Shown here in pieces: positions 1,337-23,691 of a stretch of DNA of 64,000 nucleotides. The translations under genes were made by a program, and so were the position numbers. Numbering within the stretch: the first letter of the stretch is position 1; every line of letters starts with the position of its first letter. Source of the DNA: Patescibacteria group bacterium (lineage in GTDB: Bacteria; Patescibacteriota; Microgenomatia; 0-14-0-10-38-17); contig JBMNNJ010000001.1 in assembly GCA_050953885.1 (NCBI GenBank), positions 527,437-591,436 on the forward strand, read 5' to 3'. The notes below the pieces were generated by a model, which saw only the letters and a list, made by a program, of their open reading frames with translations, searched no databases and was not told the DNA's origin.

Positions 1337-1717
1337 TTGTCAAAAAAAATAGAAAGTGCTAAACTAACAGCAATGACGCCTAAACTTTTAGCCCAGGTGG
1401 ATATCGGCCAAGAAACTAAAATTAACCCCACCCAGGGAATTAGCAGCCCTTCTCAATTCCAAACCATTGGGGGGTTAATTTCCGCCATTTTGCCTAACCT
1501 TTATGTGGCCGCGGGCTTGATTTTGCTTTTTTTCTTGATTTTTGGCGGCTTTATGGTTATATTAGGAGCAGGGAAGGGCGAAAGCCAGCAAGCCGAACAG
1601 GGCAAAAAAATTGTCACCCGCACCATAATCGGTTTCTTGATTATTTTTTTAAGTTACTGGATTATTCGCATTATAGAAATTATCACCGGAGTAAAGATTT
1701 TTAGTCCTTCGCTTTAA
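1337..1717 (+). CDS. T4SS pilin-like (VirB2/TrbC-like) small membrane protein, paralog 1
   Basis: ~120 aa, two hydrophobic helices flanking the conserved 'GGF.V..GAGKGE...A......IGFLIIF' core shared with six neighbouring paralogs. Confidence 0.5.
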   Translation: MSKKIESAKLTAMTPKLLAQVDIGQETKINPTQGISSPSQFQTIGGLISAILPNLYVAAGLILLFFLIFGGFMVILGAGKGESQQAEQGKKIVTRTIIGFLIIFLSYWIIRIIEIITGVKIFSPSL

Positions 1718-1734
1718 ATTACAAGACAAATTTT

Positions 1735-2103
1735 ATGGCTAGCAACAATAAAAAGATCGTACCTTTTTTAGCCGGGGTTGTGGGTGAAATCACTCCCCCT
1801 CCCATTGGCTATCCGGACATAGAAGCAGGCGGCTTGGGAAGTTTTTTGAACAATATTTTAATGTTAATCACCACCGTGGCCGGCCTTTTCGCCCTCTTTA
1901 ATTTTATTATGGCCGGTTTTGGTTATATGTCGGCCAACGGCGACGAAAAGAAAGTCCAACAGGCTTGGACAAAGATTTGGCAAAGCCTTCTAGGCTTAGG
2001 CATTGTGGCCACCGCTTTTCTAATTGCCGCCTTAGTTGGCTGGATTTTCTTTAAAGACCCCACCTTTATTATTAACCCAAAGATATATGGACCGGGGCAG
2101 TGA
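1735..2103 (+). CDS. T4SS pilin-like small membrane protein, paralog 2
   Basis: Motif 'AGFGYMSANGDEKK...LLGLGIV' between two TM helices. Confidence 0.5.
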   Translation: MASNNKKIVPFLAGVVGEITPPPIGYPDIEAGGLGSFLNNILMLITTVAGLFALFNFIMAGFGYMSANGDEKKVQQAWTKIWQSLLGLGIVATAFLIAALVGWIFFKDPTFIINPKIYGPGQ

Positions 2104-2417
2104 ACAAGGCAAGATACTAAGATACTGAGAGACACGATAAAGCAAATTCAAAAGTCAAAAGTCAAAAACAATAAATAAACTCAAATCGCAAAACGCAAAA
2201 CTCAAATCTACAACGCAAAACTTAAAACTTAAAAGACAAAAACAGAATTACAATTTAGAAATACAAATATTATTAAGCCCTAAAGTTTTTTAGTTTTGAG
2301 TTTTAACATGTAGTTTTGAGATTTGAGATTTGCGTTTTGAGTTTATTTTTCGTTTTCATTCGTGTCTTTTAATAATTTCTTAATTTCCTTTTTTTAACAA
2401 CTTAGCAATATAATTCT
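2104..2417. repeat. mosaic hairpin-forming intergenic repeat (contains 170-bp core element copy 1 at ~2177-2350)
   Basis: A-rich 'caaaagtcaaaa/aaactcaaat' arm, core 'gaaagacaaaaacagaattacaatttagaaatacaaatatta', then the complementary T-rich 'tttgagtttt' arm. Confidence 0.8.
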
Positions 2418-2795
2418 ATGTCCAATTATAATTTTCTTGCCCAAAGAGAAGTTCCTATTGCTCCCGATGGCGGGCTTTACGGACCTGGCCCCACAGCACC
2501 CACCACCTCCACCGGCCTAGGCGAAGGTATCGCTCATTTGATTTCCGTAGTTATCGGCCTCTTTACTTTAGTCGCCGGTCTTTGGTTTCTTTTTCAACTT
2601 ATTTTAGGCGGCTACGCTTATATGAGCGCCGGCGGCAACAAAGAAAAGGCGCAGGCTGCTAGTCAAAAAATTACCCAAGCTTTAATTGGCTTAGTGATTG
2701 TGGTTTTGGCTATCTTTATTATTAATCTCCTTGGCTATATTTTGGGCGTTGACTTCCTTGATATTATCGGGATTATCCAAAACTTAACTTTTTAA
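2418..2795 (+). CDS. T4SS pilin-like small membrane protein, paralog 3
   Basis: Motif 'GGYAYMSAGGNKEKAQAA...ALIGLVIVV'. Confidence 0.5.
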   Translation: MSNYNFLAQREVPIAPDGGLYGPGPTAPTTSTGLGEGIAHLISVVIGLFTLVAGLWFLFQLILGGYAYMSAGGNKEKAQAASQKITQALIGLVIVVLAIFIINLLGYILGVDFLDIIGIIQNLTF

Positions 2796-2804
2796 TATCC
2801 TAAG

Positions 2805-3140
2805 ATGAAACTGGCACAAGGCACAATATACAACCCTCTTCTACCCATAGAGCTTCAACAGCCACCGGCGCAGGCGCCAAATACTCTTCAGCATATTCTT
2901 TCCACCGCCATAACCCTGGCCTTAATTGGCGCCAGCGTTGTTTTTCTTTTTATTATCATCACCAGCGGCATTTCTTATATGACGGCGGGAGGAGATAAAG
3001 AAAAAAAGGTGGCCGCTTCTACCCGCCTTACCAATGGGGTTATCGGTTTGGCGATTGTTTTTTGCCTTTTTGCCTTTGCCCAACTTCTCTCTTCCCTTTT
3101 TGGCATCAATTTGTTAGAATTTACTATTCCCAGACTTTAA
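2805..3140 (+). CDS. T4SS pilin-like small membrane protein, paralog 4
   Basis: Motif 'SGISYMTAGGDKEKKVAA...GVIGLAIVF'. Confidence 0.5.
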   Translation: MKLAQGTIYNPLLPIELQQPPAQAPNTLQHILSTAITLALIGASVVFLFIIITSGISYMTAGGDKEKKVAASTRLTNGVIGLAIVFCLFAFAQLLSSLFGINLLEFTIPRL

Positions 3141-3158
3141 TTTTAAAATAAAAAGGAG

Positions 3159-3509
3159 GTGAAAAAAATGTTTAATGTTCTCGCTCAACAAGCAACCATC
3201 GACATTAATCCCGGAGAAGGATTTGAAGACATTGCCAACATTACCGTTGGTTCAATTTTAAGCGGCGCAATCCAATTGGTGTTAATCGTTGCCGCCCTTG
3301 TCTTTTTCTTTCTCTTAATTATCGGTGGTATCCGCTGGATGACGGCCGGAGGCGATAAGGAAAAAGCGGGCGCGGCTCGGGGCCAGCTCACCTCGGCTTT
3401 AATTGGCTTGGCAATTGTTTTTGCCGCTTGGGCTATTATCCGCTTAATCGAGGTTCTCTTCGGCGTTTCTATTATTAGCGGCTTTGAAATTCCCTCCTTT
3501 GTACCTTAA
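3159..3509 (+). CDS. T4SS pilin-like small membrane protein, paralog 5
   Basis: Motif 'GGIRWMTAGGDKEKAGAA...ALIGLAIVF'; perfect SD 'aaaggaggtg' 8 nt upstream. Confidence 0.55.
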   Translation: MKKMFNVLAQQATIDINPGEGFEDIANITVGSILSGAIQLVLIVAALVFFFLLIIGGIRWMTAGGDKEKAGAARGQLTSALIGLAIVFAAWAIIRLIEVLFGVSIISGFEIPSFVP

Positions 3510-3528
3510 TAACTTTTAAAACTTAAAA

Positions 3529-3903
3529 ATGTTATTAAAAAAGAAGGGGAGGAAAAAACAAGTGGCCGGACTTTTATTAGCGCAAGGTAGTGGGTGGCAG
3601 ACTAACGCTGATTATATCGCGGAAGGCGATGTGCCTACTATCTACGGCCTTGAGGCAATCGTGGCCAATATCCTCAATATTATTATCGGGTTGGCCGGGG
3701 TGGTTCTTTTGCTCATGCTAATAGGGGGTGGTTTTGGCTACATTACCTCTGGCGGTGATAAAGAAAAAGCGGCCAAGGCCAAAAACACCCTCACCTACGC
3801 CATTTTAGGCCTTTTGGTTATTTTGGGCGCTTGGCTAATTATCCGTTTAATCGAGGAATTTACCGGCTTAAATTTGCACATTTTCCAAATTCCCAAAATA
3901 TAA
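3529..3903 (+). CDS. T4SS pilin-like small membrane protein, paralog 6
   Basis: Motif 'GGFGYITSGGDKEKAAKA...AILGLLVIL'; stop overlaps the next start (TAATG). Confidence 0.5.
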   Translation: MLLKKKGRKKQVAGLLLAQGSGWQTNADYIAEGDVPTIYGLEAIVANILNIIIGLAGVVLLLMLIGGGFGYITSGGDKEKAAKAKNTLTYAILGLLVILGAWLIIRLIEEFTGLNLHIFQIPKI

Positions 3904-5900
3904 TGAAAAAGTTCCCCTTTGCCGTTAGCCTTTCCGTTTTTCTTTTCTTAGTGGCCGCAGAAGCTTGGGCAAATCCCCTTACTTATACTATTGAGTACCG
4001 AAACCGCAATATTTCTATTCCTGAAGAAAAGAAACAAGCGGTTATCAATCAAGCCCTAAAAAGTTGGCCAAATAGTAAAATTGAGATTAGCTGGGATTAT
4101 GTTTACAACAGCGCCATCAACCATAATTGGAATCCTGCTTTTGTTATTGCTCTCTGGATTGAAGAATCGGGAGCCAGCGGCGTTAGCGCTTATGATGTTG
4201 GTTGCTTAGGCGGATCACCCAATAATATTCCCAGCCAACTTAATTGCCTTTTTAGCCGCCCTTATGCTAACGAAACCTTCCGCACTTTTATGTGCAAATA
4301 TAGCGGAGAAAAAGAGGATTGCTACACCAATCCTAATTATAATTTTTTAAACAACCCCTATTTCCCTACCAACCTAGGCATTTGGTATTACCGGCTTGCC
4401 GGTAACGCCGGTCTGGGAGGTAGCGTTGGCGATGGCGGTGAGCCTACAGAACCGGGCGGCTCTTTTTATACCGAAGAAACAATTTTCTTAAAAGACAGCC
4501 TTGCCTCAAACGACCTTCTCCTCGACTACCGCTATTATCGCGAAGAAAGTCGCCCCACCCCCGCTCCTCCTCCCCCTAATATTTCTCCCGCCCCAAAAGT
4601 TCAGGGCGCTACAACAGAAAGAGGAACTAAATCGTTTGATGGGGAGTTAAATATCACCGAAGAGGGGAAAAACCTCCCTAATTTTAAAATAATGGAGGAA
4701 ACTTTATCTTTTTCTTTAGAAAGACTACTGCCGGAAAGTCTAAGAAAAGAATTATCAATTAATCCCCAAGAAATTAGCGGTAAGGCGCGGCACTTTGTCT
4801 ATGGCTTAAGCGAAAATGAAGGTAAGTTAGCGATCAATAGCGCCGCAGAAGGAATTCCCCGGGAAATTCCTGAAGAAAAAGCCGCCTTTCCCTCTTGGTG
4901 GGGCCAGCTGGTTGGGGAAAGCAAGGTAGTCTGCGGTCTTTTTAACACTTGCCCCGCCCCAGAAAGCCTTAAAATTAAAGTCGCCGCCGCTGACGAATAC
5001 AATCCTCCCGAAGGCCTCGGCCACCGAAACTCCTCTTCTTTGGTTGACGAAGAAAATCTTGATAACGAAGTCATTAGCTCTCACTTCACTATCATCAGCT
5101 TTTTTACCAGAATTATTGAGGAAATCACCGAATTCTTTGAATATTGGGGAGAAGTTCTTATCGCCAAAAAAGAAACCACCACTACCACCGCCTTAGCCGA
5201 AACACGGGCAATTGTCCCCGGCGGCGAGAATATCAGAGAAAACACTTCTTTTTTCAAAGGCTTCCTCCCCGCTTCGGCTATTCCTGCCCATCACAACTCG
5301 CCTCTAAAAGTAAGCGCCGATTATGAAGTTTCTTCAGGATACACCCTTATAGGAGAAGAGAAGCTGGAATATCATAATTTAGGCGCTACCCAAAGAAATT
5401 ATTGCTTGAGTCTTTGTTCACAATATCCAGCCGGCTTTAATATCAGCCAAATTGACCCCCTTTGCCCTTCTTGCCGTCCAGATGATTATCCTCTCGAAGG
5501 CTACGGCGATATTCCTTTAAGCAAAGAGCTGTGCCGATCCCCAAATGGGAAGATAAGACAAGAAGACGAAGAAGGAGAATGCCATTATTATGATCTCCCC
5601 AACGGAGCCAATGAGGGCTGTGAAGAAGGTCAGGATCCGGTTTGCGAAGGCGGGAGATGCAATCCTTATGAATTTTATACCGACGATTATATTAAAAAAT
5701 GCGGCACTACCCCTTGGTACGGAAGCTGTCGTGATGTTAATGTTTGCGAGTTGATGACCTTTGCTAAAAATCCCGCCGGCGGGTTTGGCGAATGCCAATA
5801 CGCCAACCCCACCGTTTGTGTTCGCACCGATCGTCTTAAGGTAGGCAAATGCGCTGCGGTTTGCAACTTGGCCTGTTGCGCGGAGCAGAAGAAAAAATAA
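3903..5900 (+). CDS. secreted cysteine-rich protein (start chosen at internal ATG 3903; signal peptide MKKFPFAVSLSVFLFLVAAEAWA)
   Basis: Signal peptide; about 30 Cys clustered in the C-terminal 180 aa; no known family. The ORF-track start at 3831 overlaps the previous gene. Confidence 0.45.
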   Translation: MKKFPFAVSLSVFLFLVAAEAWANPLTYTIEYRNRNISIPEEKKQAVINQALKSWPNSKIEISWDYVYNSAINHNWNPAFVIALWIEESGASGVSAYDVGCLGGSPNNIPSQLNCLFSRPYANETFRTFMCKYSGEKEDCYTNPNYNFLNNPYFPTNLGIWYYRLAGNAGLGGSVGDGGEPTEPGGSFYTEETIFLKDSLASNDLLLDYRYYREESRPTPAPPPPNISPAPKVQGATTERGTKSFDGELNITEEGKNLPNFKIMEETLSFSLERLLPESLRKELSINPQEISGKARHFVYGLSENEGKLAINSAAEGIPREIPEEKAAFPSWWGQLVGESKVVCGLFNTCPAPESLKIKVAAADEYNPPEGLGHRNSSSLVDEENLDNEVISSHFTIISFFTRIIEEITEFFEYWGEVLIAKKETTTTTALAETRAIVPGGENIRENTSFFKGFLPASAIPAHHNSPLKVSADYEVSSGYTLIGEEKLEYHNLGATQRNYCLSLCSQYPAGFNISQIDPLCPSCRPDDYPLEGYGDIPLSKELCRSPNGKIRQEDEEGECHYYDLPNGANEGCEEGQDPVCEGGRCNPYEFYTDDYIKKCGTTPWYGSCRDVNVCELMTFAKNPAGGFGECQYANPTVCVRTDRLKVGKCAAVCNLACCAEQKKK

Positions 5901-5919
5901 TTGCATTTTAAAAATTTTT

Positions 5920-7482
5920 GTGGTACTTTTAAACTATAAAAAGATGACCTTTTCTTTTTCTTGCAAACTTTCTTGCAAAAAACTATTTTTAGCTTTCTTT
6001 ATTTTTGGGACTGCTTTTCTTTTATTGGTCCCAAAAATAAAAGCGGTAAACGCTTATTACGAGCCGGGGACAGGCGGCGGGGTCGGCGGGAAAGTCGCTT
6101 CCTTTGAAGAAGCAGTTTACGAAACCAATGAATTTAACAACGAAAGCCATTCTTATGCCACCACCGAAAATATTATCCAAAGCCTCAACAATATGATTTT
6201 GGGTTGCGCCACTGAAACATGCGCAAATGCTTTAGCCTCAAAAGGTTTGCCTACCAACGGCGCCGTTGGCGCCGCCAGCGGCTTGATCGCCTCTCTTTAC
6301 GCCACCCCACCCGCCTCTTCTGCTTATTACTTGGCTGACTTGGGCCAGCGGCTTAATCTAACTCAATCGGTCTACGCCCAAGGAATCGGTTTTTCCGGCC
6401 TCAACCCTCTCTTGGATCTTTGGAAAGCGGCTCGCAACGTAGCCTACACTTTCTTTATTTTTGTCTTCCTAATTATTGGTTTTGCCATTATGTTTCGGGC
6501 CAAAATTAACCCCCAAACGGTGGTCACCATTCAAAGCGCCATCCCCAAGGCGGTGGTGGCCCTGATTTTGGTTACCTTTTCCTACGCCATCGCCGGGTTA
6601 ATGATTGATTTGATGTACCTCTCAATCGGTTTACTTTTTGGTCTTATCCCCGCTAATTTTAAAGCTTTTCTTCCTCATGGCAGCGATGTTACTCCTTATT
6701 ACACCGGCGGCTTTGGTGAGCTTATTCATAATGTTTGGGATGCCGGCTGGGGATCCTTCTGGAGAGTTCTTACCGAAGGTGTTGGTTGGACAGGACTAGG
6801 AGTTGATGCTGGCATAACAGGAATCGCTGCCGGTATCGCCGCACTGCTTTCCGGACCTACAGGCTGGGTTGCCCTAGCCACTGCCGTAGCTACCCCTATA
6901 CTATTAATATTCCTCGTCGCTATAATCGTTCTTTTCGCCACCGTCAAAATTTTTTGGGTGCTTTTGGTTTCTTATATCAACATCATCATTAGTATTTTGA
7001 TTGCCCCTATTCAGTTAATGCTTTCCGCCATCCCCGGCCAAAATACTTTTGGCCCCTGGATAAGCAATCTCTTAAAAAATATTCTTGTTTTTCCTGCCAC
7101 CGTCGGTATGTTTATTTTAGCCTTTATCCTCTCCGATCTTTCTAAAATAAGCGGTGATCAAAATCTTTGGGTGCCACCTCTTTTAGGTTTTTGGGGCGAA
7201 AAAACCAGTCAAGCAATCGGGGGGTTGTTAGGTTTTGGTATCATCTTGATGACCCCTAAAGTAGCTGATATAATCAAGAGTATGTTTGAGAAAAAGCCCT
7301 TCGCCGCCGGGACGGCGATAGGGGAAGCATTGGGACCGGCTAAGGGAATAGGAAAAGCCGCAGGATGGGTAGGGGTTAGTAGTGGCGCTGAAGCAATCAC
7401 GGCGGGCTGGAGTGGAGCAACGCAACCCCCAATAAAGAAGGGAGTCAGAACAATTCTCCAACGTACAAAAATAGTCCAATAA
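5920..7482 (+). CDS. polytopic membrane protein, VirB6/TrbL-like (contextual assignment)
   Basis: At least five long hydrophobic helices, Gly-rich loops, placed after the pilin genes in a T4SS-like locus. Confidence 0.4.
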   Translation: MVLLNYKKMTFSFSCKLSCKKLFLAFFIFGTAFLLLVPKIKAVNAYYEPGTGGGVGGKVASFEEAVYETNEFNNESHSYATTENIIQSLNNMILGCATETCANALASKGLPTNGAVGAASGLIASLYATPPASSAYYLADLGQRLNLTQSVYAQGIGFSGLNPLLDLWKAARNVAYTFFIFVFLIIGFAIMFRAKINPQTVVTIQSAIPKAVVALILVTFSYAIAGLMIDLMYLSIGLLFGLIPANFKAFLPHGSDVTPYYTGGFGELIHNVWDAGWGSFWRVLTEGVGWTGLGVDAGITGIAAGIAALLSGPTGWVALATAVATPILLIFLVAIIVLFATVKIFWVLLVSYINIIISILIAPIQLMLSAIPGQNTFGPWISNLLKNILVFPATVGMFILAFILSDLSKISGDQNLWVPPLLGFWGEKTSQAIGGLLGFGIILMTPKVADIIKSMFEKKPFAAGTAIGEALGPAKGIGKAAGWVGVSSGAEAITAGWSGATQPPIKKGVRTILQRTKIVQ

Positions 7483-7692
7483 TAGCATGCTCCAAAGAAC
7501 TAAAAAAGTCGCTGGAAAACTCCTTCTTTCTGCCATTTACAAAGAGGCGGCAAACCATTCAGCTAAAGGAAAAGAGCCGTGGAATACTGTAAGAAGACTG
7601 ACTAAAAAGAAAGCAGAACAAAAATAAGCCTACATTCATTAACGTAAATAAGCTTATTTTAACATCTCTTTCCCTCAAGACAAAACAATAAC

Positions 7693-9309
7693 TTATTTGT
7701 TCTTTCTCCCCTCATGTAGAGGAAGACATTCTTGTTTAGATAAGACATTTTGTATTGACTCCCATGCTTCACGAGAGTCAGAAAAAAATCCTGCCGTTTC
7801 ACAGGCCGCCTTCACATATTCAATAAGACCCTTAGAACTTCCTGCCCCCAAACTTTTAAGTAATCCATCTAAAATACCAGGAGCAACTACATCCGCTCTT
7901 CTATTTTTGCTTATTGTAGATGTTCCTAACGTTAACAATCTCCCTCCAATCAAATTTATTTTCAGTAATTTCTTTTCTTCATCATCCAAATCCCCCGTGC
8001 CTAATTGAATATCCTTATTAATCACCCTTAAGGCTTCAGGCGTTACTAATTCAGCCACCATATCTGGCAATTTATTTTCCCAAAAAATCTTTCTCACTCG
8101 ATTCTGCCTAAACATACAATAAAGCCAAGAGCTAAAGGCTGTTTCCGGAGTTTCTTTAAGTACATCCTTTAGGTTCTCCCCACCCATCCAGCGGTCAAAA
8201 ATAGATTTTTTTCCCCCTTTAGGCCCAACTTTGGTAGCATGCCAAAAATCAGTTGTTAAGCTGTCCGGAGCTGTCTGGGCCAAGACCGGTGGCCCTGCCG
8301 GTCTGCCCAGCCTTAAATCAGCTAAGGTCTTACCTCTAAAAAAGAAAAGTTTTATCAAATCAGATTGCTGCTCATTATAAAAAGTGCAATCTCCCTCTGG
8401 CTTTTCCCCTCTTTTATCCTTCTCGCCTCCCAACCAAACAGACAAGAGTGTTACTGTTGCCAAATGTTTGGCTAAAATAACCGCTCTCTTAGCTACAAAA
8501 GAATTCACACCTTCCTCGACTAATTGTTTCTCCAACATTTCCGCAAATTTCCTTCTCTCTTCTTCAGTGGAATCTTTTTCTTGTAGAATCTTAGTAAAAG
8601 TCGTTTCTATTTTTCTCCCCGCCGGTGTTTTTAATTCAACCCCAAGGTGTATATCTATTATAAGTCTCAATGCCCTCTCTGTCGCTGGACCATAATCGGG
8701 AGTTTCCAACAAATCTTTCATCATTGAAGGAGGCAAAGTCTCCAAATACGATGCACTTAAAAAAAGTCTTTCTGCATAAGTATCAACATCGCTTTCCAGG
8801 GGAGACCGTTGGGCAAAAACATTTTGAAGTCTAATCGCCGCTTCTACTTGATGAAGCACTTTCCCCCATTCTTCAGCTTCTTCTTCATTTTTTCTTTTCC
8901 TTTCTCCCTCACTCCCCATGCCTTCTCCTTTACTTTCTTCCCCAAAGGGTTGGCGTTGATATTTTCTAAGATAAGACTCTGGCAAACCGCCTATTCCCTG
9001 AAGGTGAATAGAAAATTTATCAGAATAAGCTCTCCTATTTAAAGCGTCAATAACCGGACGCACCGACCATGGCTCTATCGCCTCTGGTTTTTTCTCGTTG
9101 CTTTCTCTTGGAAATAACAGCTCAAAAATAATCACTTCTCTCCCGCCTTGTGGCGCAACTTCGGGATTACTAAGCATCTCCGCTATCCCCACCGATAACT
9201 CTCGCAACTTCATTTGCTCCTGCGTTAGCGCCTCTGGCCAACCAAGTTCCCCCTGGTTTACCTCTTCCGACGGTCTTCCTCCTGGTCTTTCTCCTTCAAC
9301 TCCTAGCAT
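7693..9309 (-). CDS. hypothetical cytoplasmic protein (acidic, no TM)
   Basis: Long ORF antisense to the T4SS-like genes; no recognisable motif. Confidence 0.5.
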   Translation of the reverse strand: MLGVEGERPGGRPSEEVNQGELGWPEALTQEQMKLRELSVGIAEMLSNPEVAPQGGREVIIFELLFPRESNEKKPEAIEPWSVRPVIDALNRRAYSDKFSIHLQGIGGLPESYLRKYQRQPFGEESKGEGMGSEGERKRKNEEEAEEWGKVLHQVEAAIRLQNVFAQRSPLESDVDTYAERLFLSASYLETLPPSMMKDLLETPDYGPATERALRLIIDIHLGVELKTPAGRKIETTFTKILQEKDSTEEERRKFAEMLEKQLVEEGVNSFVAKRAVILAKHLATVTLLSVWLGGEKDKRGEKPEGDCTFYNEQQSDLIKLFFFRGKTLADLRLGRPAGPPVLAQTAPDSLTTDFWHATKVGPKGGKKSIFDRWMGGENLKDVLKETPETAFSSWLYCMFRQNRVRKIFWENKLPDMVAELVTPEALRVINKDIQLGTGDLDDEEKKLLKINLIGGRLLTLGTSTISKNRRADVVAPGILDGLLKSLGAGSSKGLIEYVKAACETAGFFSDSREAWESIQNVLSKQECLPLHEGRKNK

Positions 9310-9416
9310 ATTTAACCTAGCAATAATTACTTATTTAAATAAATTCTACCATATTAAATATTTTCTCTCTAAAACCATTATATCACATTAAATTAATCAA
9401 TTTTTCCTATCACAGA

Positions 9417-11348: not shown

Positions 11349-11687
11349 ATTGGTTTAGCTATAACAAACTTGGCCCGATTTTAGCAAAAAATATAGGAAA
11401 AAACAAGCTCGGCCCTTGCGCAGTTTCTTAGTTTGTTGTAAGCTAGAATTGTTTAAAGTTAAAAGTCAAAATTCAAAATGCAAAAAGTTAGCAACTCGCA
11501 ACTGGTAACCAGTAACTCGTAATAAGAAGCCAAGATTAAATAACAAAGAGTAAAATGCAAAACCAAGCCAAGAATTAAAAATGTCTTTGAATTTTGATTT
11601 AGGTTTTAATCTTTGCGCTTTGCTCTTTGCGCTTTTTTTATTACCTATTACGGACTACTGATTTTGACTTTTGAATTTTGAATTTTT
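11349..11687. repeat. mosaic hairpin-forming intergenic repeat
   Basis: Arms 'aaagtcaaaattcaaaatgcaaaa ... ttttgacttttgaattttgaattttt', with modules 'gttagcaactcgcaactggtaaccagtaactcgtaataagaa' and 'tttgatttaggttttaatctttgcgctttg'. Confidence 0.8.
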
Positions 11688-12533
11688 ATGGAACAGCATC
11701 CTATTCCTCAACACATTTCCTCCTATGAGTTTCGCCTTATCGGCGAGATGACGCTAGGACAGTTTGCCCGTGTGGCCGGCGGGGTTATCGTTGGTTTGCT
11801 TTTCTACGCTCTTCCTTTACCCGGTTTTATCAAGTGGTTCCTTGTTTTTCTTGCGGTGGGAGGAGGAGCAGCTTTTGCTTTTTTTCCCATTGAGGGCCGC
11901 CCCTTGGAAACCTGGATTTTGGCCTTCTTAAAATCAATTTATTCTCCCACCCAGTATGTCTGGCGAAAAAGCGTCGCCTCTTTTGACTTTCAAACCCGAA
12001 CGCCCTCTGCCGAAGAAGCCCTTCCTCCTTCCCCAGCCACAAAAACCCTTACCCCTCAAGAGTTGGCTCTTTTGCGCACTTTTGGACAGAAAGATACCGA
12101 TTTTTATAGTGAAGAGGAAATTAAAAAAGCCCAGGCGCTTCTTGCTCTTTATCAGCAACCCACCAAAGTAACCCCTCCTCCCCCCCCGGCGGGGGTTAAA
12201 AAAGAAGAAAAGGCCAAAGAGACTCGCTTTGAGGAAAACCTGCCTTTTCCCGCCCCGCCGGAAGAGCCGAATATTATCGTCGGTATGGTGATTGACAAAA
12301 ACGGCAAGATTGTGGAAGGAGCAATTATTGAGATCAAAAACCAAGAAGGGGAAACGATGCGGGCAATGAGAAGCAACAAGTTGGGTCAGTTTCGCACTGT
12401 TTCTCCTTTAGGTGATGGCGAATACCAAATTTCCTGCGAAAAAGAAGGACTTAATTTTGATATAATGAAAATTAAACTTGAAGGGAAAATCCTTCCACCT
12501 ATTGAAATAAGAGAAAAGCCATCGGCTCTATAG
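11688..12533 (+). CDS. PrgI/VirB3-like membrane protein with C-terminal carboxypeptidase-regulatory-like beta domain
   Basis: N-terminus 'IPQHISSYEFRLIGEMTLGQF' plus two TM helices resembles the PrgI family. C-terminus 'IIVGMVIDKNGKIVEGAIIEIKN...GQFRT' resembles the CarbopepD_reg fold. Sits directly upstream of VirB4. Confidence 0.4.
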   Translation: MEQHPIPQHISSYEFRLIGEMTLGQFARVAGGVIVGLLFYALPLPGFIKWFLVFLAVGGGAAFAFFPIEGRPLETWILAFLKSIYSPTQYVWRKSVASFDFQTRTPSAEEALPPSPATKTLTPQELALLRTFGQKDTDFYSEEEIKKAQALLALYQQPTKVTPPPPPAGVKKEEKAKETRFEENLPFPAPPEEPNIIVGMVIDKNGKIVEGAIIEIKNQEGETMRAMRSNKLGQFRTVSPLGDGEYQISCEKEGLNFDIMKIKLEGKILPPIEIREKPSAL

Positions 12534-12566
12534 GATCTATTAACCCTATATCAAATTTTTCAAAAA

Positions 12567-13337
12567 ATGCCAACCTCACCTGTCCGTGCCTCAACCCAAG
12601 AGGCCATTCCCATTGAAGACATTCGCGACAATTTAGTTATTTTAAAAGATGGCTCGGCGGCGCTGATTCTCCAAATAAGCGCCCTAAACTTTGACCTTCT
12701 TTCTCAAAGAGAACAGGAAGCGCTTATTTTTGCCTATGGCAGTCTTCTTAACTCCCTTAGTTTCTCAATCCAAATTTTTATTCGTTCGCAAAAAAAAGAC
12801 ATTACCGGCTACCTTAGTCTCTTGGAAAAGGCCAAAGATAATCAAAAAAATCCTCTTCTTAAGAAACTTATCACCGACTATCAAAAATTTATTAAAGAAG
12901 TGGTCACCAAAACAGAAATTTTGGATAAAAAATTTTATCTGGTGATTCCCTTTTCCTCACTTGAATTAGGAATAGGCGCGGCAACAAAAAGCCTTACCGC
13001 CAGTCTCCCTTTTTTTAAAAAATCTGCTCCCTCTCAAAAATTAGACTTAATTGAGGTTTCCCAAAAGGCGCAGACCTCACTTACCCCCAAGAGGGACCAT
13101 TTAATCAGGCTTTTTGCCCGCTTGGGGCTTTCTGCCCGCCAGCTCACCACCAACGAGCTTATTTACCTTTTCTTCCGTATTTACAATCCCAACGCCAAGG
13201 GGATTGAACCGGCCCTTACCAAAGAATATCTCTCGCCCTTAACCACCAGCGTTTTAACACCACCGAAAGAAGAAATCGCAAAGACAGAAAAGCCTGAAAC
13301 TCAAAATGAGAAGTCAGAAACAAAAGCGCCGCAGTAA
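12567..13337 (+). CDS. virB4: VirB4/TraE-family N-terminal domain (stand-alone ORF)
   Basis: 'IPIEDIRDNLVILKDGSAALILQISALNFDLLSQREQEALIFAYGSLLNSL.FSIQIFIRSQK' matches the Gram-positive VirB4/TrbE N-terminal region; ends in a low-complexity linker. Confidence 0.55.
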   Translation: MPTSPVRASTQEAIPIEDIRDNLVILKDGSAALILQISALNFDLLSQREQEALIFAYGSLLNSLSFSIQIFIRSQKKDITGYLSLLEKAKDNQKNPLLKKLITDYQKFIKEVVTKTEILDKKFYLVIPFSSLELGIGAATKSLTASLPFFKKSAPSQKLDLIEVSQKAQTSLTPKRDHLIRLFARLGLSARQLTTNELIYLFFRIYNPNAKGIEPALTKEYLSPLTTSVLTPPKEEIAKTEKPETQNEKSETKAPQ

Positions 13338-13798
13338 AGTCAAAAATCAAAATTTAAAAGTTTATCCGCCAGCTGGCGGATAAAATTCAAAATGAAAATG
13401 TAAAAAGTAAAAAGTTAGTAACTCGTAACTGGTAACCAGTAACTCGTAATAAGAAATCAAGATTAAATAGCAAATATCAAAATGCAAAACCAAGTTCAAA
13501 GACCAAAACTATAAATTAAATCTCAAAACGCAAATGACAAACTGCTCTGCCGGCAAGGCAGGTCTACATGGCAAATGTTAAAACTTTTTAAAGCTTAAGG
13601 TTATTTTTTTAGATTTTAGTTTTGAGTTGTAGTTTTGAGTTTTGACATTTGAGATTTAAGTTTATTTATTGTTTTTGAATTTTGATTTAGGTTCTAATCT
13701 TTGCGCTTTGCGTTTTACGCTTTTTTATTACTTATTACGAGTTACATATTACGGATTACTGATTTTTAATTTTGACTTTTGAATTTTGAATTTTTTTC
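13338..13798. repeat. mosaic hairpin-forming repeat lying between the two VirB4 halves
   Basis: Contains all modules: 'caaaa' arms, 'ccgccagctggcgg', the 'aactggtaaccagt' module, 'tgccggcaaggcagg', and ends 'ttttgaattttgaatttttttcATG'. Confidence 0.8.
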
Positions 13799-15631
13799 AT
13801 GCCCAATCCTCTTAACCAACTATTAGCAATAATCAAGCCTCCTAAAAAAGAAAGTCAGGCGGAGGCGGCCGCAGAAAAAGAAGGCGGCGACACCTTTGGC
13901 GCCGGCGTGCCCACCATTAAAGACATCATCGCCCCGGCCGCCATTGAAGTGGATTTTTCCTATCTTAAAATTGACAATAAATATTTACGGACTTTTTTTG
14001 TCGCCGGTTATCCCCGCTTTGTTTCCGCCAACTGGCTCTCGCCCCTGATTAATTTTGACCACACCTTGGATATTTCCATGTTTATTTATCCAGTGGAAAT
14101 AAAGGGAACCTTAGACGACTTGCGCCGGAAAATCGCCGAAATGGAAGCGGAAATTTCCACCGACATCCAGCGGGGCCGGGTGGTTGATCCCTCCACCCAA
14201 GCAAAATTAGAAGACGCCCTTGCCCTTCAAGAAGAGTTAGCCAAAGGAACAGAGCATTTTTTTCAATTTAGCCTCTATATCACCATTCCCGCTGATTCTC
14301 TTCAGGAATTGGAAGAGGTAAGTCGTGAAGTTGAAGCCACCTTGGGTTCGCTTTTAATTATTGCCAAAACGGCTAGCCTGCAAATGGAAGAAGGCTTTAA
14401 AACCACTCTCCCTTTGGGAGTTGATCTTTTAAATATTACCCGTAATATGGACACCACCTCACTAGCCACCACTTTCCCTTTTACTTCCTCAGAACTGACC
14501 GCCAACGAGGGGATTTTATACGGTGTTAACCAACATAATGGTTCTTTGGTTATTTTTGACCGTTTCAATTTGGAAAATTCTAATGCGGTTATTTTTGGCA
14601 AGTCCGGTTCGGGGAAAAGTTATCTGGTAAAACTTGAAGCCCTGCGCTCTTTAATGATGGGCACGGAGCTGATTATTATCGACCCCGAGGAAGAATACCA
14701 CCAGCTTTGTGAAGCAGTAGGAGGCGAGTATATTAAATTTGGTTTTGGCTCGCGGGCAAAAATCAACCCTTTTGATCTCCCCAGTCAGCAACTATCGTTT
14801 CCCGGCGAAAAAACCGAAAATGAACTTGGCTTCAAGCTTCTCTCTCTTCATTCGCTTTTAAAAATAATGTTAGGAGAGATGAGCGCTAACGAAGAAGCAA
14901 TTTTGGACCGAGCACTCGTGGCCGCTTATAAAAGCAAGGGAATCACTCCCGATCCCGCCACTTATGAACAGGAGCCGCCGCTTTTAGAAGATCTTTATAA
15001 AACTCTTTTGGGAATGGAAAGTAAAGAGGGTCAGCTTTTGGCTACCCGTTTGGAAAAATTTGTTAAAGGCTCGCTTACCGGCATTTTTGACCAGCATTCC
15101 AATGTTAACCTAAAAAATCCTTTTACGGTTTTTTCCTTAAAAGACGTCGAGGGCGACTTAAGGCCGGTGGTAATGTTTATTATCCTTGATTACATTTGGA
15201 CCAAGGTTAAGGCAGAGCTTAAAAAAAGAATCGTCATTGTTGATGAGGCGTGGTATTTAATGCGCTATCCTGATTCGGCCCAGTTTTTGGAATCTATCGC
15301 CAAAAGGGCGCGCAAGTATTATCTGGGGCTTTCCACTATCACCCAAGACGTTCCCGATTTTCTTTCTTCGCCCTATGGGGAATCAATTATCACCAATTCT
15401 TCTGTTCAAATTTTAATGAAACAGCATCCGGCCGCTATTGACCGCTTAGGCGAGGTTTTCTATCTTTCCGAGGGGGAGAAAAACTTCCTCCTCTCGGCCA
15501 ATATTGGCGAAGGGCTTTTCTTTGCCGGCGAAAACCATGTGGCCATTAAAGTCATCTCCTCCCCTCAAGAACATAAATTGGTTAGTTCCAGTCCGAAAGA
15601 GAAAATAAAAGAAACGACCAAAGAAAAATGA
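13799..15631 (+). CDS. virB4: VirB4/TraE-family ATPase, central and C-terminal domains
   Basis: 'FVAGYPRFVSANWLSPLINFDHTLDIS' VirB4 mid-region; Walker A 'GKSGSGKS'; Walker B 'IVIVDEAW'. Confidence 0.8.
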   Translation: MPNPLNQLLAIIKPPKKESQAEAAAEKEGGDTFGAGVPTIKDIIAPAAIEVDFSYLKIDNKYLRTFFVAGYPRFVSANWLSPLINFDHTLDISMFIYPVEIKGTLDDLRRKIAEMEAEISTDIQRGRVVDPSTQAKLEDALALQEELAKGTEHFFQFSLYITIPADSLQELEEVSREVEATLGSLLIIAKTASLQMEEGFKTTLPLGVDLLNITRNMDTTSLATTFPFTSSELTANEGILYGVNQHNGSLVIFDRFNLENSNAVIFGKSGSGKSYLVKLEALRSLMMGTELIIIDPEEEYHQLCEAVGGEYIKFGFGSRAKINPFDLPSQQLSFPGEKTENELGFKLLSLHSLLKIMLGEMSANEEAILDRALVAAYKSKGITPDPATYEQEPPLLEDLYKTLLGMESKEGQLLATRLEKFVKGSLTGIFDQHSNVNLKNPFTVFSLKDVEGDLRPVVMFIILDYIWTKVKAELKKRIVIVDEAWYLMRYPDSAQFLESIAKRARKYYLGLSTITQDVPDFLSSPYGESIITNSSVQILMKQHPAAIDRLGEVFYLSEGEKNFLLSANIGEGLFFAGENHVAIKVISSPQEHKLVSSSPKEKIKETTKEK

Positions 15632-15651
15632 GAAATTAAAAATTCGGTTTT

Positions 15652-18600
15652 ATGCCCGACCAAGATAAATTAATCCTTTCCCGCGAAACCGCCGCACATC
15701 TTCTTGAGGGAATCTCTTTTTTTAAAGAAAATCCCGCCGCCAAAGAATGGCAAAATTTAGATAAGAATCTTTTTATTTTTCTTTGCCGCGAACTTTGTCA
15801 ATTACCTGTCGAGGAAGAAGAAAATCTTAATGATTATCTTGCCCGTCTTGAGGATTTTTTAAAAAAAATCGTTAATGAAGAGCTCACCGCCCCTTCCCTG
15901 CCCCAAAATTTGGAAGAATTAGTTGAGGCTTGGGAAAAATTTTTGGCCCAAAAAGACGCCCAAGCGCCACCTCCTCCCAAAATAAATCTTCCCACCGTTG
16001 AAGACTGGATAAAAACTTTACAGGAAAAAAGGGTTCAGGAAGAGGTCGCCCCCCAAGTTGAAAAGGCGCTTGAAACCGCCGCTCCCCACCTTTCCTCCCA
16101 AGATAAGGCTGTTCTTGGAGAAAAGATAAGCGAAGAGATCGCCAAAACCCCCTTCCTTATCCTTCCCCGGGAAGAAAAAGAAGCGGTTGCCCAAAGGGTG
16201 GTTGAGAAAAGCCTTGAAGAAAAACAAATCCTTTTAGGAGAAGAACAAAGGCAACTGTTAACTAAGACAATGGTTAGTCCGGCGCCAACGCTTCCTTCCC
16301 AAAAGCAAGTGGTTAAGGAAATCGGAGACCAGGTAGAAAGTTTAGTAAGCCAGCATCTCCCCGACCTTTCTCCTGATCAAAAACAACTTCTCTCTCACCA
16401 GTTGGTTGAAGAAGTAATTACGCCGATAATTCCCCCCGAGGAGGCTTTTCTCAAGCCTTCGCTTTGGCTGGCCGAAGCCCCGGGGTTAAAAACACCTCCT
16501 GAAATAGCCGCTAAGGCAGAGACAATCATTGAAACCAGTGTCCCTCAAGCTTCAGGGGAACAAAAAGAAGCCTTAAAGAAAGAGGTTGAAAAAATCATTA
16601 GAGGAGAAGAAGAGCTTGGTCCGGCCACCAAAGAATGGCAGGAAACTTTTCGCCAGACACTGGCGAGAGAGGAAATAAAACCAAGGGTAGAAGCAGTTCT
16701 TGAAACCGCCGCTCCCCACCTTTCCTCCCAAGATAAGGCTGATCTTGGAGAAAAGATAAGCGAAGAGATCGCCAAAACTCCCTTCCTTACCCTTCCCCGG
16801 GAAGAAAAAGAAGCGGTTGCCCAAAGGGTGGTTGAGAAAAGCCTTGGGGAAAAACAAATCCTTTTGGGAGAAGAACAAAGACAGCTATTAACTAAGGCAA
16901 TGGTTAGTCCGGCACCAGCGCTTCCTCCAAAAGAAAGAGTCGTTAGAGAAATTATTACCCCACCTGTTTTTAAAAACTTTCAGGAACAAATCAAAGAAGC
17001 CCTAAAAATTTCTTTAGGAAAAGTTGAGCCGGAAACCATTAGCGAGGTGAGTCCCATTGTCAGCGAAGCGCTGGCGGTTAATCTTCCTTTCTTAACCCCC
17101 CAAGAATTAGCAAGCCTAAACCCTTCAGAAAAAGGCGAAATCGTGGAAAACACTATCGAGGCAGCCCTGCCGGATATTGGCGAATTTTTGGTCGCCAAAG
17201 GAATTAACCTTTCCCCCCAAGAAACTGCCAATTTTTTAGATCAGCTTACCATTGCCACAAATGATAATTTAGAAAAGCTCACCATTGTTCCGCCCGAAAA
17301 TCGTCTCCCCCAGGAAAAAATTACCAAAACCGAAGGAAGCGCCACCCCCGCCTTAGCCGCCCTCCTTCATCCCCGTCAAACCGCCACTCTCCTTTTTAAC
17401 CCCCAATTAAGAAGAAACCTTGAGGCTTTAGATAAAAACCCCTCCCTTCCTTTTAGTCTTACTGTTGAAGGAGAAGAGGCCTCGCCGGGAGAAAAAATTA
17501 AAAATATTTTTCTTCAAAAGGGAATTAATTTTCAAAGCGTTAATTTAGTCAAGCCCCTAAAAGAGGAAACCGAAAGCTTAATATTGGCCGCCAAGGGAAT
17601 TACCAGTGCCGACTTAAACTTGGCGATTAAGACAAGCCGGGAGGAAAACCGACCGGTTGAAGAAATTAGTAAATTAGAACAGCTTTTTGTCCGTCAGTTG
17701 GATTTTGAAAAAAAGTTTCCCCAGTTAGCCCAAAAATTTTATCGCCTAAGAAGAGCGCGTGAAGTTGTTTCCGGCCAGAAAAACGACCAAAAATTACCTT
17801 CCTGGCCTTTTGCCCAAATTAAAAGCCAAACTAACCTTGAAACAACAAGATGGAACTTTTTAAGAACTGCTAATCGTTTTTTGGAAAAAATAGGCTTGGT
17901 TAAAAAAGAGGAAAGTCCTTCAGGGAAAATTATCCAATCCTCTCTGGTTTGGTATTATCCCCAAAAAATTGGCCAGGCAATCTCCTCTTTTTGGCAAAAA
18001 ACAGGGATTGGCAAAACCATTAAATCTTGGTTTTCCCAACAAACTCATCGTTTTTGGCAAGGCGCTTTGGGACAAATAAGAGGATTTAGTAAAGCGGGAG
18101 TTAAAAAAGCGGCTCAGGAAGGCGCCAAAAAAGGGGTTGCCAAAGCCATCGCCTGGCTTTCTACCAAGCTGGCGGCCACCAAACTGGGGGCGGCTTTAGG
18201 CTCAATTGCCCCGGGAATAGGCAATGCGGTCGGCGCGGTAGTGGGATTTGTGGTTGATACCGGCGTCTCGCTTTTTAAAAAAGGCGGTGAATTTTTAGAA
18301 AAGCTTACCGGCGGCCAAACCGAAGCCGAACAAAAACTAAAAGCCGCTCTTGGCCCATTTTCTTTTCTGGTTTCCCCTTTAGTTTTAATTTTTATTATCG
18401 CCTTAGGCGCGCCACTTATCCTTGTTTTTTTAACTGTTACCAATATTGGTGGCGCTTTTTTGAGCCCGGCGGGGGGAGAAGAATTTGTCCCCCCGGGTAA
18501 TTCTCTCCCTCCTAATATTAACGGTCATTTATCGGAACAACTAGTTCAAATGTTTATTAACTGCGGTTTAGGAAACCCCGAGAGAGAAAATGCTACTATT

Positions 18601-19062
18601 TCTGTAAACAAAGGAAGCCTTTCTCGCTTTATAGACTGCATTGAGAACAGCGATCTAGACCCTTGGCAAAAAAACGCTCTCTCCGACAGGTTTGAAAGCA
18701 ATACTAATAAATTTTATTATTTTCAATGTGTTGGTTTTGTTTTTGGCGTGGAAGCTATCCAAGGAAGAATAATGCCTTCAAATGATGTTTGTTGGGCTAC
18801 CGCAAACCAGTGGGGCAAAGAAGAATGTTATAAAAATAGTCCTGAATATGAATTTTTAGGAAATGACTGCTCTGGAGTACAGCCCGGAACTATTGCTGTT
18901 TGGTTCGGCAGCACTACTGGTCATATCGGTATTATCACCGGCATAGAAGAAGAAGTAGGTGAGCGTCGATTCCGCTTTACCTCAGCATGGGGTAATAATG
19001 GTATTATTGATATCCGCTCTTTTCCCTGTAGTCAATTTGATGCTTTCATCAGACCTCGATAA
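15652..19062 (+). CDS. large T4SS-associated protein with internal tandem repeats, TM segments and C-terminal CHAP peptidoglycan hydrolase domain (VirB1/PrgK-like role)
   Basis: C-terminus 'FQCVGFVFG...GTIAVWFGSTTGHIGII' carries the CHAP Cys/His; two ~227-bp near-identical copies at 16069-16295 and 16699-16925. Confidence 0.55.
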   Translation: MPDQDKLILSRETAAHLLEGISFFKENPAAKEWQNLDKNLFIFLCRELCQLPVEEEENLNDYLARLEDFLKKIVNEELTAPSLPQNLEELVEAWEKFLAQKDAQAPPPPKINLPTVEDWIKTLQEKRVQEEVAPQVEKALETAAPHLSSQDKAVLGEKISEEIAKTPFLILPREEKEAVAQRVVEKSLEEKQILLGEEQRQLLTKTMVSPAPTLPSQKQVVKEIGDQVESLVSQHLPDLSPDQKQLLSHQLVEEVITPIIPPEEAFLKPSLWLAEAPGLKTPPEIAAKAETIIETSVPQASGEQKEALKKEVEKIIRGEEELGPATKEWQETFRQTLAREEIKPRVEAVLETAAPHLSSQDKADLGEKISEEIAKTPFLTLPREEKEAVAQRVVEKSLGEKQILLGEEQRQLLTKAMVSPAPALPPKERVVREIITPPVFKNFQEQIKEALKISLGKVEPETISEVSPIVSEALAVNLPFLTPQELASLNPSEKGEIVENTIEAALPDIGEFLVAKGINLSPQETANFLDQLTIATNDNLEKLTIVPPENRLPQEKITKTEGSATPALAALLHPRQTATLLFNPQLRRNLEALDKNPSLPFSLTVEGEEASPGEKIKNIFLQKGINFQSVNLVKPLKEETESLILAAKGITSADLNLAIKTSREENRPVEEISKLEQLFVRQLDFEKKFPQLAQKFYRLRRAREVVSGQKNDQKLPSWPFAQIKSQTNLETTRWNFLRTANRFLEKIGLVKKEESPSGKIIQSSLVWYYPQKIGQAISSFWQKTGIGKTIKSWFSQQTHRFWQGALGQIRGFSKAGVKKAAQEGAKKGVAKAIAWLSTKLAATKLGAALGSIAPGIGNAVGAVVGFVVDTGVSLFKKGGEFLEKLTGGQTEAEQKLKAALGPFSFLVSPLVLIFIIALGAPLILVFLTVTNIGGAFLSPAGGEEFVPPGNSLPPNINGHLSEQLVQMFINCGLGNPERENATISVNKGSLSRFIDCIENSDLDPWQKNALSDRFESNTNKFYYFQCVGFVFGVEAIQGRIMPSNDVCWATANQWGKEECYKNSPEYEFLGNDCSGVQPGTIAVWFGSTTGHIGIITGIEEEVGERRFRFTSAWGNNGIIDIRSFPCSQFDAFIRPR
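16069..16925 (+). repeat. two near-identical ~227-bp direct repeats (period ~630 bp) inside the 1136-aa CDS
   Basis: 'cttgaaaccgccgctccccacctttcctcccaagataaggctg...' repeated with only a few substitutions. Confidence 0.8.
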
Positions 19063-23336: not shown

Positions 23337-23691
23337 AAGAAAAAATTGTTAAAATACGCGAATGAAAACGAATAAAATTCAAAACGCAAAATTAAAAATC
23401 AGTAATCCGTAATATGCAACAAAAAAAGCGCAAAAAGCAAAGTGCAAAGATTAGAACCTAAATTAAAATTCAAAGATATTTTTAATTCTTGGCTTTGGTC
23501 TTTGAGCTTGGTTTTGCATTTTACTCTTTGCACTTTAATCTTGTTTTCTCACGAGTTACTAACTTTTTACTTTTTACATTTTCATTTTGATTTTATCCGC
23601 CAGCTGGAAGATTCGTCAGAATGACGAATCGCCTTGCGCATTACGAACCGCATACATTATACCTAATATTAGATATAAAATACAACCTTGC
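23337..23691. repeat. mosaic hairpin-forming intergenic repeat (inverted arrangement of the 11.4-kb modules, plus half of the 'ccgccagctgg' palindrome)
   Basis: 'cagtaatccgtaatatgc...gcaaagattagaacctaaat...cacgagttactaacttttt'. Confidence 0.75.

Follow-up and report, generated by a model that had tools for sequence, protein, structure and literature searches.

A locus at positions 1337-19062 of a 64,000-nucleotide stretch of DNA from an ultrasmall Patescibacteria group bacterium (Microgenomatia; GenBank assembly GCA_050953885.1, contig JBMNNJ010000001.1, positions 527,437 to 591,436; hereafter the window) very probably encodes a chromosomal, origin-proximal and non-conjugative secretion system of type IV (T4SS) for host contact, which belongs to a Patescibacteria-specific lineage derived from the conjugation machines of monoderm bacteria (MPF_FATA). 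We infer that it functions as a host-contact conduit, for import or export. An initial annotation, made from the letters of the DNA alone, had likened the gene set to the T4SS-like systems proposed for the candidate phyla radiation (CPR), which agrees with published accounts of these systems (PMC12102498; PMC12857230).

The locus consists of two co-oriented gene blocks, between which lies a variable slot that holds unrelated genes on the minus strand (Table 1). The first block runs from the pilin array through a secreted protein, rich in Cys and modular in its head, to a VirB6-like polytopic protein, and the second from a PrgI/VirB3 protein with a beta-sandwich through TrsD, VirB4 and a membrane-anchored CHAP hydrolase to a Big_5 protein. 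All genes of the locus are intact. Straight after it come dnaN and dnaA (0.7 and 2.5 kb from its end, respectively), which the initial annotation had left out. Forty-eight open reading frames (ORFs) of the window were scanned against Pfam, and 20 of these also against NCBIfam; those taken from 26.8-64 kb were about 110 amino acids (aa) or longer. The profile searches supported the earlier pilin, PrgI/VirB3, VirB4 and CHAP assignments, with all of these genes at the places first named, but not that of VirB6.

Table 1. Features of the window, with coordinates counted from its first nucleotide.
Feature	Position	Strand	Length (aa)	Family matches and remarks
VirB2-like pilin paralogue 1	1337-1717	+	126	PF18895 E 7.1e-6, 26.4 bits (cutoff 26.6); two transmembrane-like segments
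Pilin paralogue 2	1735-2103	+	122	PF18895 28.2 bits
Pilin paralogue 3	2418-2795	+	125	PF18895 30.1 bits
Pilin paralogue 4	2805-3140	+	111	PF18895 28.5 bits
Pilin paralogue 5	3159-3509	+	116	PF18895 38.4 bits; start 9 nt later in independent gene calls
Pilin paralogue 6	3529-3903	+	124	PF18895 45.4 bits; PF04956 19.9 bits (under cutoff 27.9)
Secreted modular Cys-rich protein	3903-5900	+	665	Signal-peptide-like N-terminus; 24 Cys; start 3903 agrees with independent gene calls
Polytopic membrane protein, VirB6 candidate	5920-7482	+	520	7 transmembrane-like segments; 512 aa in independent gene calls
Charged protein, lineage-specific	7693-9309	-	538	No family match; five homologues in 5.8e9 proteins
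Acidic protein, lineage-specific	9417-11348	-	643	No family match; 109 representative clusters
PrgI/VirB3-like membrane protein with C-terminal CarboxypepD_reg-like beta-sandwich	11688-12533	+		PF12666 32.2 bits (cutoff 27); PF13620 30.8 bits (just under cutoff 32.3)
TrsD-like protein	12567-13337	+	256	NF041427 TrsD E 2.9e-9, 37 bits (subfamily cutoff 200)
VirB4 ATPase	13799-15631	+	610	NF045971 conju_CD1110 395.8 bits (cutoff 325), alignment starting at model position 186; PF19044 106.9 bits; PF12846
Large CHAP protein	15652-19062	+	1136	PF05257 28.6 bits (cutoff 26), residues 1019-1100; transmembrane segment 911-929
Membrane-anchored Big_5 (Ig-like) protein	19086-19763	+		PF13205 35.6 bits; last gene before dnaN
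dnaN	19766-20893
dnaA	21553-22893
Pilin paralogue 7	23007-23336	-	109	PF18895 36.0 bits; far side of dnaA
Fusion protein, Cys-rich ectodomain and pilin domain	23692-24615	-	307	Signal peptide; ectodomain with 13 Cys; C-terminal pilin domain, PF18895 34.6 bits, residues 240-296
tmRNA gene	30175-30541	-		Rfam 134.7 bits; not reported by ARAGORN; adjoins smpB
smpB	30713-31114
comF	31198-31998			TIGR00201 E 7e-26, under curated cutoff
Hairpin copies	2150-2370, 24820-25030, 29910-30125, 32440-32625 (reverse)			Four copies; 86% mean identity when aligned
Related hairpins	11461-11686, 13382-13794, 23439-23536, 27698-27779, 35152-35273

By its profile match, VirB4 is assigned to the monoderm type (CD1110/C. 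difficile CTn2, MPF_FATA). It aligns to the full-length VirB4 models from about position 186-270 onward, without the canonical N-terminal domain, and it matches NF045975 (VirB4_plasma) at E 9.6e-82, under the equivalog cutoff. Directly upstream lies the gene of a TrsD-like protein that the initial annotation had overlooked. This protein matches the N-terminal part of the VirB4 models (positions 102-281 of 894 in NF045975, E 1.5e-9; positions 5-124 of 792 in TIGR00929) as well as PF11130 TraC_F_IV (E 0.0027), and its Joint Genome Institute (JGI) record is tagged PF26593 TraC-like. As TrsD covers the N-terminal model positions that VirB4 lacks, the two are predicted to act as a split VirB4, in which TrsD behaves as the detached N-domain. 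A direct comparison of TrsD and VirB4 alignments with hhalign was not significant (probability 0.2, E 0.38; shallow alignments, Neff 2.6), and a sequence-profile search of TrsD against the PDB returned nothing meaningful.

The PrgI/VirB3-like protein has two transmembrane-like segments and a Pro-rich linker that leads to the beta-sandwich. The initial annotation had recognized both parts and had called the second unusual; the assignments stood, with the beta domain near its cutoff, but the fusion is not unusual, as PrgI and CarboxypepD_reg were found together in all 30 relatives checked. The fusion is a trait of the clade.

The genomic setting was compared with that of 80 related loci (designated by L numbers), which have VirB4 identities of 56-70% and were taken with flanks of 10 kb. 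The nearest VirB4s, with identities of up to 70%, are from metagenome-assembled genomes (MAGs) of the Microgenomates group (Shapirobacteria, Chisholmbacteria, Gottesmanbacteria, Woesebacteria and Levybacteria). A TrsD homologue lies directly upstream of virB4 in 74 of the 80 loci, and a PrgI homologue is found in 70. The order common to the relatives starts with the pilin array, (the Cys-rich protein), the VirB6 candidate and the variable slot of minus-strand genes, and continues with PrgI, TrsD, VirB4, the large protein with a hydrolase tail, the Big_5 protein, dnaN and dnaA; dnaN/dnaA adjoin the T4SS locus in 61/80. Such a fixed gene order beside dnaN/dnaA across Microgenomatia indicates that the locus is inherited vertically at one place in the chromosome and is not a mobile element. 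The window has an even GC content (36-45% in 2-kb bins), by which the locus does not stand out. The source organism is present in three JGI metagenomes, with identical gene order and with housekeeping genes in the upstream flank. It should be noted that several public MAGs with a Microgenomatia-type locus (L001, L002, L017 and others) probably carry wrong taxonomic labels, their records naming Gammaproteobacteria, Pseudomonadales, Clostridia or Bathyarchaeia.

Six tandem pilins and two further copies had been proposed at first, and all eight ORFs match PF18895 (T4SS_pilin; E 7e-6 to 9e-12), seven of them passing the gathering score. Each has two hydrophobic segments that flank a K/E-rich loop of the GGDKEK type. 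The core GG.xYM(T/S)AGGDKEK, which had been described as conserved, is near exact in copies 3-6 but does not extend to the others, and three Gly columns alone are invariant in the alignment of the eight pilin domains. Weak matches to TrbC/VirB2 (PF04956) were found in three copies, all sub-threshold. In addition, window pilins match NF045849, the pilin-like protein of the Mycoplasma integrative and conjugative element (ICE), at E 3.8e-8 (pilin 6) and 3.7e-6, under its cutoff, a sequence similarity which hints that a pilin-like protein was already present in some monoderm T4SSs. The leaders of the window pilins are 5-20 residues long, end in L-A-Q/A/G and are without a hydrophobic core, and several positional orthologues bear full Sec signal peptides that end in AxA followed by Q (L085 7624-9489; L004 2-2158). 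From these sequences, the signal peptide seems to have been gained or lost between pilin orthologues. Fusions of an N-terminal Cys-containing ectodomain to a C-terminal pilin head the arrays of L068, L070, L076, L078 and L079 (227-592 aa).

The pairwise identity among the window pilins averages 30% and reaches at most 47%, with means of 34% in the core and 18% in the N-terminal region. The positional orthologues of pilins 2-6 are 70, 62, 50, 65 and 64% identical in L085, and 51, 37, 41, 65 and 47% in L004. By alignment score, the positional counterpart is the best match for each of pilins 2-6 in L085, and for each except pilin 4 in L004, where the next column over scores higher. For pilins 2, 3, 5 and 6, the L085 identities are above any identity inside the window array, while pilin 4 is ambiguous in L085 (50% on the diagonal vs. 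53% to a neighboring copy). Among these orthologues, the N-terminal regions diverge faster (38-56% identity) than the cores (51-76%). Judging from these alignments, the array is older than the split of these lineages, each position having been maintained. The collinear orthology favors non-redundant, specialized roles and argues against rapid antigenic turnover. Of the functional or antigenic diversification that had been suggested for the paralogues, functional specialization is thus favored and recent antigenic expansion is not, even though the N-terminal regions are the faster-evolving ones.

The polytopic protein at the end of the first block is the candidate for VirB6. Its first description as VirB6-like found no match in Pfam, NCBIfam or PDB sequence-profile searches, and what speaks for it is a marginal match at the level of the fold. 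More than 500 homologues exist, with none annotated among the best 120, and the gene is found at the same position in at least 23 of the 80 related loci, a lower bound given that the 10-kb flank often excludes it. An AlphaFold (AF2) model built from 55 sequences had a mean confidence (pLDDT) of 74.6, which rises to about 90 in its membrane core. When this model was compared with the whole PDB by Foldseek, the top three matches were the TrwJ/VirB5-TrwI/VirB6 stalk chains of R388 (probability 1.00, E 5e-3 to 1.6e-2, target-normalized TM-score 0.41-0.43), and four further chains of the same R388 complexes were among the top 11. The modeled fold thus gives specific but marginal support for a VirB6 identity.

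The protein between the pilins and the VirB6 candidate, which the initial annotation had rightly described as secreted and Cys-rich, has no Pfam or NCBIfam match, and nothing meaningful was found for it by PDB sequence-profile search. It is made of an N-terminal head (residues 26-166), here called 'EESG', and of a conserved middle and Cys-rich C-terminal body. Among its 32 homologues, eight are full-length, and the rest have residues 26-166 alone in common (50-60% identity); in these head-only homologues the 'EESG' module sits at the C-terminal end of a larger protein, and one such protein adjoins a VirB6-candidate homologue. Within the head, W85, E87, E88 and S89 are invariant. The structure model is confident for the head alone, and its weak fold matches (E 0.95-7), among which peptidoglycan hydrolases of the lysozyme fold recur (GH73 autolysins, g-type lysozyme, Slt35, SltB), suggest that the head is possibly lysozyme-like. 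The L085 protein at the same position has a homologous middle and Cys-rich body (E 1e-29), and its head is PF11790 Glyco_hydro_cc; two further homologues, P0149 and P0150, carry GH5. On these sequence comparisons, the Cys-rich protein has a conserved body with exchangeable heads, which probably cleave glycans.

By analogy, the large CHAP protein behind VirB4 may be regarded as a functional VirB1/PrgK counterpart. No lytic transglycosylase or lysozyme-like domain was found in it by the family scan. In its long N-terminal region, a module of about 85 aa is present twice, encoded by a 254-nt direct repeat (16069-16322 and 16699-16952, 91% identity). The tail domain of the protein after VirB4 varies among relatives, being CHAP here and in L008 and M23 in L060, and no hydrolase tail domain was detected in L004 or L001. 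The Big_5 protein, which has a homologue in the corresponding place in 14 loci, is a possible accessory part of the T4SS.

The two minus-strand genes at 7693-11348, both of which encode highly charged proteins, had been included in the system by the initial annotation. Neither family was found in any of the 80 related loci by jackhmmer and family profiles; in two close relatives, L085 and L086, a homologue of the first does stand beside that of the VirB6 candidate, and in L084 the neighbor is a 525-aa gene. The region has a strongly negative GC skew (-0.24 to -0.33), and other lineages have different minus-strand genes in the same slot (a small methyltransferase, NAD synthase and large unknowns). 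Judged by these comparisons, this 3.7-kb region is a variable slot between conserved T4SS blocks and no part of the machine. The idea that the two ORFs are a conserved T4SS component that has been split was rejected, as they have no homology to the large minus-strand ORFs of relatives.

The initial annotation had also stated that the window is without VirD4, a relaxase and VirB8-11, and this was borne out by the family scan. No family match to a relaxase or to a VirD4/TcpA coupling protein was found among the tested ORFs of the 64-kb window (Pfam E <= 0.001, NCBIfam E <= 0.01), and no type IV coupling protein (T4CP) or relaxase was hidden among the unannotated ORFs; the sole trace of a T4CP is a P-loop-level match of VirB4 itself to NF045973 (12.9 bits). 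Likewise, VirB7, VirB8, VirB9, VirB10 and VirB11 had no family match, and no integrase, ComEC or type IV pilus genes were detected among the scanned ORFs.

Taken as a host-contact T4SS, the locus would work as follows. VirB4 with its detached N-domain TrsD would be docked at the membrane by PrgI/VirB3 and would power assembly at the VirB6-like platform, where the two-helix, VirB2-like pilins would be extracted from the membrane into a surface filament or a short conduit. The cell wall of the bacterium itself or of its host would be cut open by CHAP and possibly also by the head of the Cys-rich protein, which is glycosidase-like. The five or six anciently diverged pilins and the ectodomain-pilin fusion would have distinct, non-redundant roles (e.g., as major subunit, minor subunit or tip). 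As a whole, the machine would serve contact with a host cell and the exchange of macromolecules, either by import from the host bacterium or by effector delivery to it, and would take no part in conjugation.

Several points weigh against this proposal. The gathering score of the classical family PF04956 (27.9) was reached by no pilin, the best being pilin 6 with 19.9 bits, and the pilin sequence profile reached no solved VirB2/TraA pilin in the PDB. No VirB8-like component was identified by Pfam/NCBIfam sequence matches. Support for VirB6 is marginal (E 5e-3, TM-score 0.41-0.43), and the chains matched are VirB5 or VirB6. The lysozyme-like reading of the 'EESG' head is not significant (E >= 0.95). 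A pilus has been observed for no such system. Finally, the window spans 64 kb of a contig of about 0.6 Mb, so that a T4CP or relaxase may lie farther off; Patescibacteria commonly have T4CP homologues at a distance from virB4 (PMC12102498).

An effector-exporting T4SS that parasitizes a host bacterium, in which the glycosidase-headed Cys-rich protein or the acidic proteins of the slot would be the effectors and the pilins would be adhesins or a needle, is an unlikely alternative that nevertheless deserves weight. The slot genes by VirB6 are variable and fast-evolving, with five homologues for one of them and other genes elsewhere, the hydrolase heads are swappable, and effector delivery has been speculated on in the literature. 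A T4CP, the usual substrate receptor, is however not found nearby, the Sec-type signal peptide of the Cys-rich protein means that the T4SS is not needed for its exit, and the acidic proteins have no recognizable secretion signal or toxin domain.

We consider it rather improbable that the locus is a dedicated DNA-uptake (competence) T4SS like H. pylori ComB or archaeal Ced, which would feed ComEC/ComFC for nucleotide scavenging or transformation. The lack of a relaxase and T4CP, the presence of comF in the window, the weak match of VirB4 to CedB (NF041017, E 2.6e-13) and a published speculation that DNA or other macromolecules are imported are consistent with uptake, a role that had been suggested at the outset partly from the proximity of comFC. 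That gene was confirmed by TIGR00201, but it lies 12 kb off, beyond dnaN, dnaA, SpoIID, tmRNA and smpB; with these housekeeping genes between, its position is uninformative and lends no specific support to DNA uptake. Moreover, co-localization of comF has been published for ABY1, not for Microgenomatia (PMC12102498), the CedB match (49.5 bits) is far under its cutoff of 700, and ComEC and type IV pilus genes are missing from the window scan. In the one organism tested, Ca. Southlakia epibionticum, transposon sequencing found that the T4SS and its six-pilin array were essential for epibiotic growth and that comEC was dispensable (Wang, 2023, as described in PMC12102498, PMC12857230 and PMC11665869), so that the essential role there is not ComEC-linked uptake.

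The reading in which the small 'pilins' are membrane-resident two-helix proteins (channel- or holin-like components, or translocon stabilizers) and not filament subunits is doubtful to a similar degree. It can draw on monoderm T4SSs being normally without pili (PMC12102498), on the missing sequence link to solved pilins, on weak holin-family matches of one copy and on the several window copies without a full signal peptide. On the other side, all eight copies match a curated T4SS_pilin family, with weak TrbC/VirB2 matches in addition, their topology of two transmembrane helices around a short K/E-rich loop is VirB2-like, and exposure at the surface would suit both the ectodomain-pilin fusions and the faster evolution of the N-terminal regions.

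It is highly improbable that the locus is an ICE, whether ordinary or in decay, which has lost its relaxase, T4CP and oriT or has them beyond the window: VirB4, PrgI, TrsD and CHAP do all belong to monoderm conjugation machines, and some Patescibacteria genomes have relaxases and many have distant T4CPs (PMC12102498), but the same gene order stands beside dnaN/dnaA in the 61 genomes noted above across Microgenomatia, the scan found no integrase, relaxase or T4CP, GC is uniform with all genes intact, and just 15 relaxases lie near virB4 among 2,474 virB4 genes (PMC12102498).

Within the favored host-contact T4SS, a more specific picture can be offered as a long shot. The five or six ancient pilins would form a heteropolymeric filament, the Cys-rich protein would sit distally as a VirB5/VirB1-like determinant of host range, and its exchangeable heads ('EESG', PF11790, GH5) would fit the machine to break through the walls or capsules of various host bacteria. 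If true, the Cys-rich protein would be a host-range determinant as yet undescribed for such systems, and the homology of the pilins to Mycoplasma-ICE proteins would place a pilin in the ancestral monoderm machine and not among parts borrowed from diderm T4SSs.

Apart from the T4SS genes, the window contains an intergenic hairpin family of about 200 nt, in which an A-rich arm of CAAAA/TCAAAA-like repeats is followed by its T-rich complement. No Rfam family was matched, and the copies look like elements of the miniature inverted-repeat transposable (MITE) or repetitive extragenic palindromic (REP) type. A nested copy puts 460 bp between TrsD and VirB4, whose genes abut or overlap in relatives. 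The hairpins were rejected as T4SS-specific regulatory sites or as an oriT, as the same family occurs in unrelated intergenic regions throughout the window. At 49688-50320 and 46845-47336, in the housekeeping part of the window, lie a toxin fragment with weak likeness to the AbiEii nucleotidyltransferase and an ORF that resembles C39 peptidases.

Much of bacterial diversity falls to the CPR/Patescibacteria, whose way of life is attachment to other microbes, and their T4SS is the first that has been shown to be essential for its carrier bacterium (PMC12857230; PMC11665869). Its role has been called 'completely unknown', with uptake from the host or effector delivery as speculation (PMC12857230; PMC11665869). 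Among known systems, the tandem VirB2 arrays of Bartonella, Anaplasma and Rickettsia likewise have several divergent VirB2-like genes, for which surface-exposed variation has been proposed. Those systems are, however, diderm MPF_T machines of pathogens of eukaryotes, with variation tied to immune evasion, whereas the present paralogues are ancient and positionally orthologous, and the machine presumably targets another bacterium. H. pylori ComB and archaeal Ced resemble the locus in being T4SS-derived and without a relaxase, and are used for import; ComB differs by its VirB7-10 outer-membrane parts and Ced by its use of CedA/CedB, to the latter of which the match here is far sub-cutoff. The ICE of Mycoplasma (Mbov_0395 pilin-like, Mbov_0397 VirB4) also represents a T4SS of a wall-less monoderm with a small pilin-like protein, but it is mobile and conjugative and has an unsplit VirB4, and the scores here, being under the equivalog cutoffs, do not make the window proteins members of those families.

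Closer are the monoderm MPF_FATA systems (pCF10 Prg/Pcf, pIP501 Tra, C. difficile CTn2 and pGO1 Trs), which have PrgI, TrsD, VirB4 and a CHAP-type hydrolase (PrgK/TraG-like) in common with the locus. They differ from it in having a relaxase, a T4CP (PcfC), a VirB8-like protein (PrgL) and surface adhesins, in being borne on plasmids or ICEs, and in having no VirB2-like pilin.

The closest likeness is to the T4SSs of the Patescibacteria clade. Quinonero-Coronel (2025; PMC12102498) described a Patescibacteria VirB4 clade nested in MPF_FATA, with TrsD as the commonest partner together with PrgI/VirB3, VirB2-like pilins and a VirB6 that is 'scarce' in Microgenomatia, VirB8 being almost undetectable outside ABY1. 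In that study, 441 arrays of 2-11 pilin genes were found chiefly in Microgenomatia and Saccharimonadia, with a mean identity of 25% and a maximum of 54%, values with which those of the window pilins agree. Relaxases were near-absent, T4CPs rarely lay near virB4, and proximity to dnaA/dnaN was noted in Paceibacteria and Microgenomatia, with comF co-localization in ABY1 only. The main text of PMC12102498 makes no mention of the PrgI-CarboxypepD_reg fusion, the modular Cys-rich protein or the variable minus-strand slot. The locus shares with this clade an MPF_FATA-type VirB4 with adjoining TrsD, PrgI/VirB3, a putative VirB6-like protein, a divergent pilin array, hydrolases after virB4, a chromosomal location and the lack of a relaxase. 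No sequence profile recognizes its VirB6 candidate, in keeping with the scarcity of VirB6 in Microgenomatia (PMC12102498). The pilins number six in Ca. Southlakia epibionticum ML1 and six plus two here, and the two genomes differ in lineage, ML1 belonging to Saccharimonadia and the present one to Microgenomatia. The architecture has already been published (2023-2025), and the locus is a typical example of it that introduces no new principle. What it adds to the published picture is a marginal candidate for the VirB6 of Microgenomatia, pilins that are orthologous and collinear between genomes, the clade-wide PrgI fusion and a modular hydrolase-headed protein. The locus provides a clean and complete Microgenomatia example of the Patescibacteria T4SS, and its modular hydrolase-headed protein is a candidate factor for host specificity.

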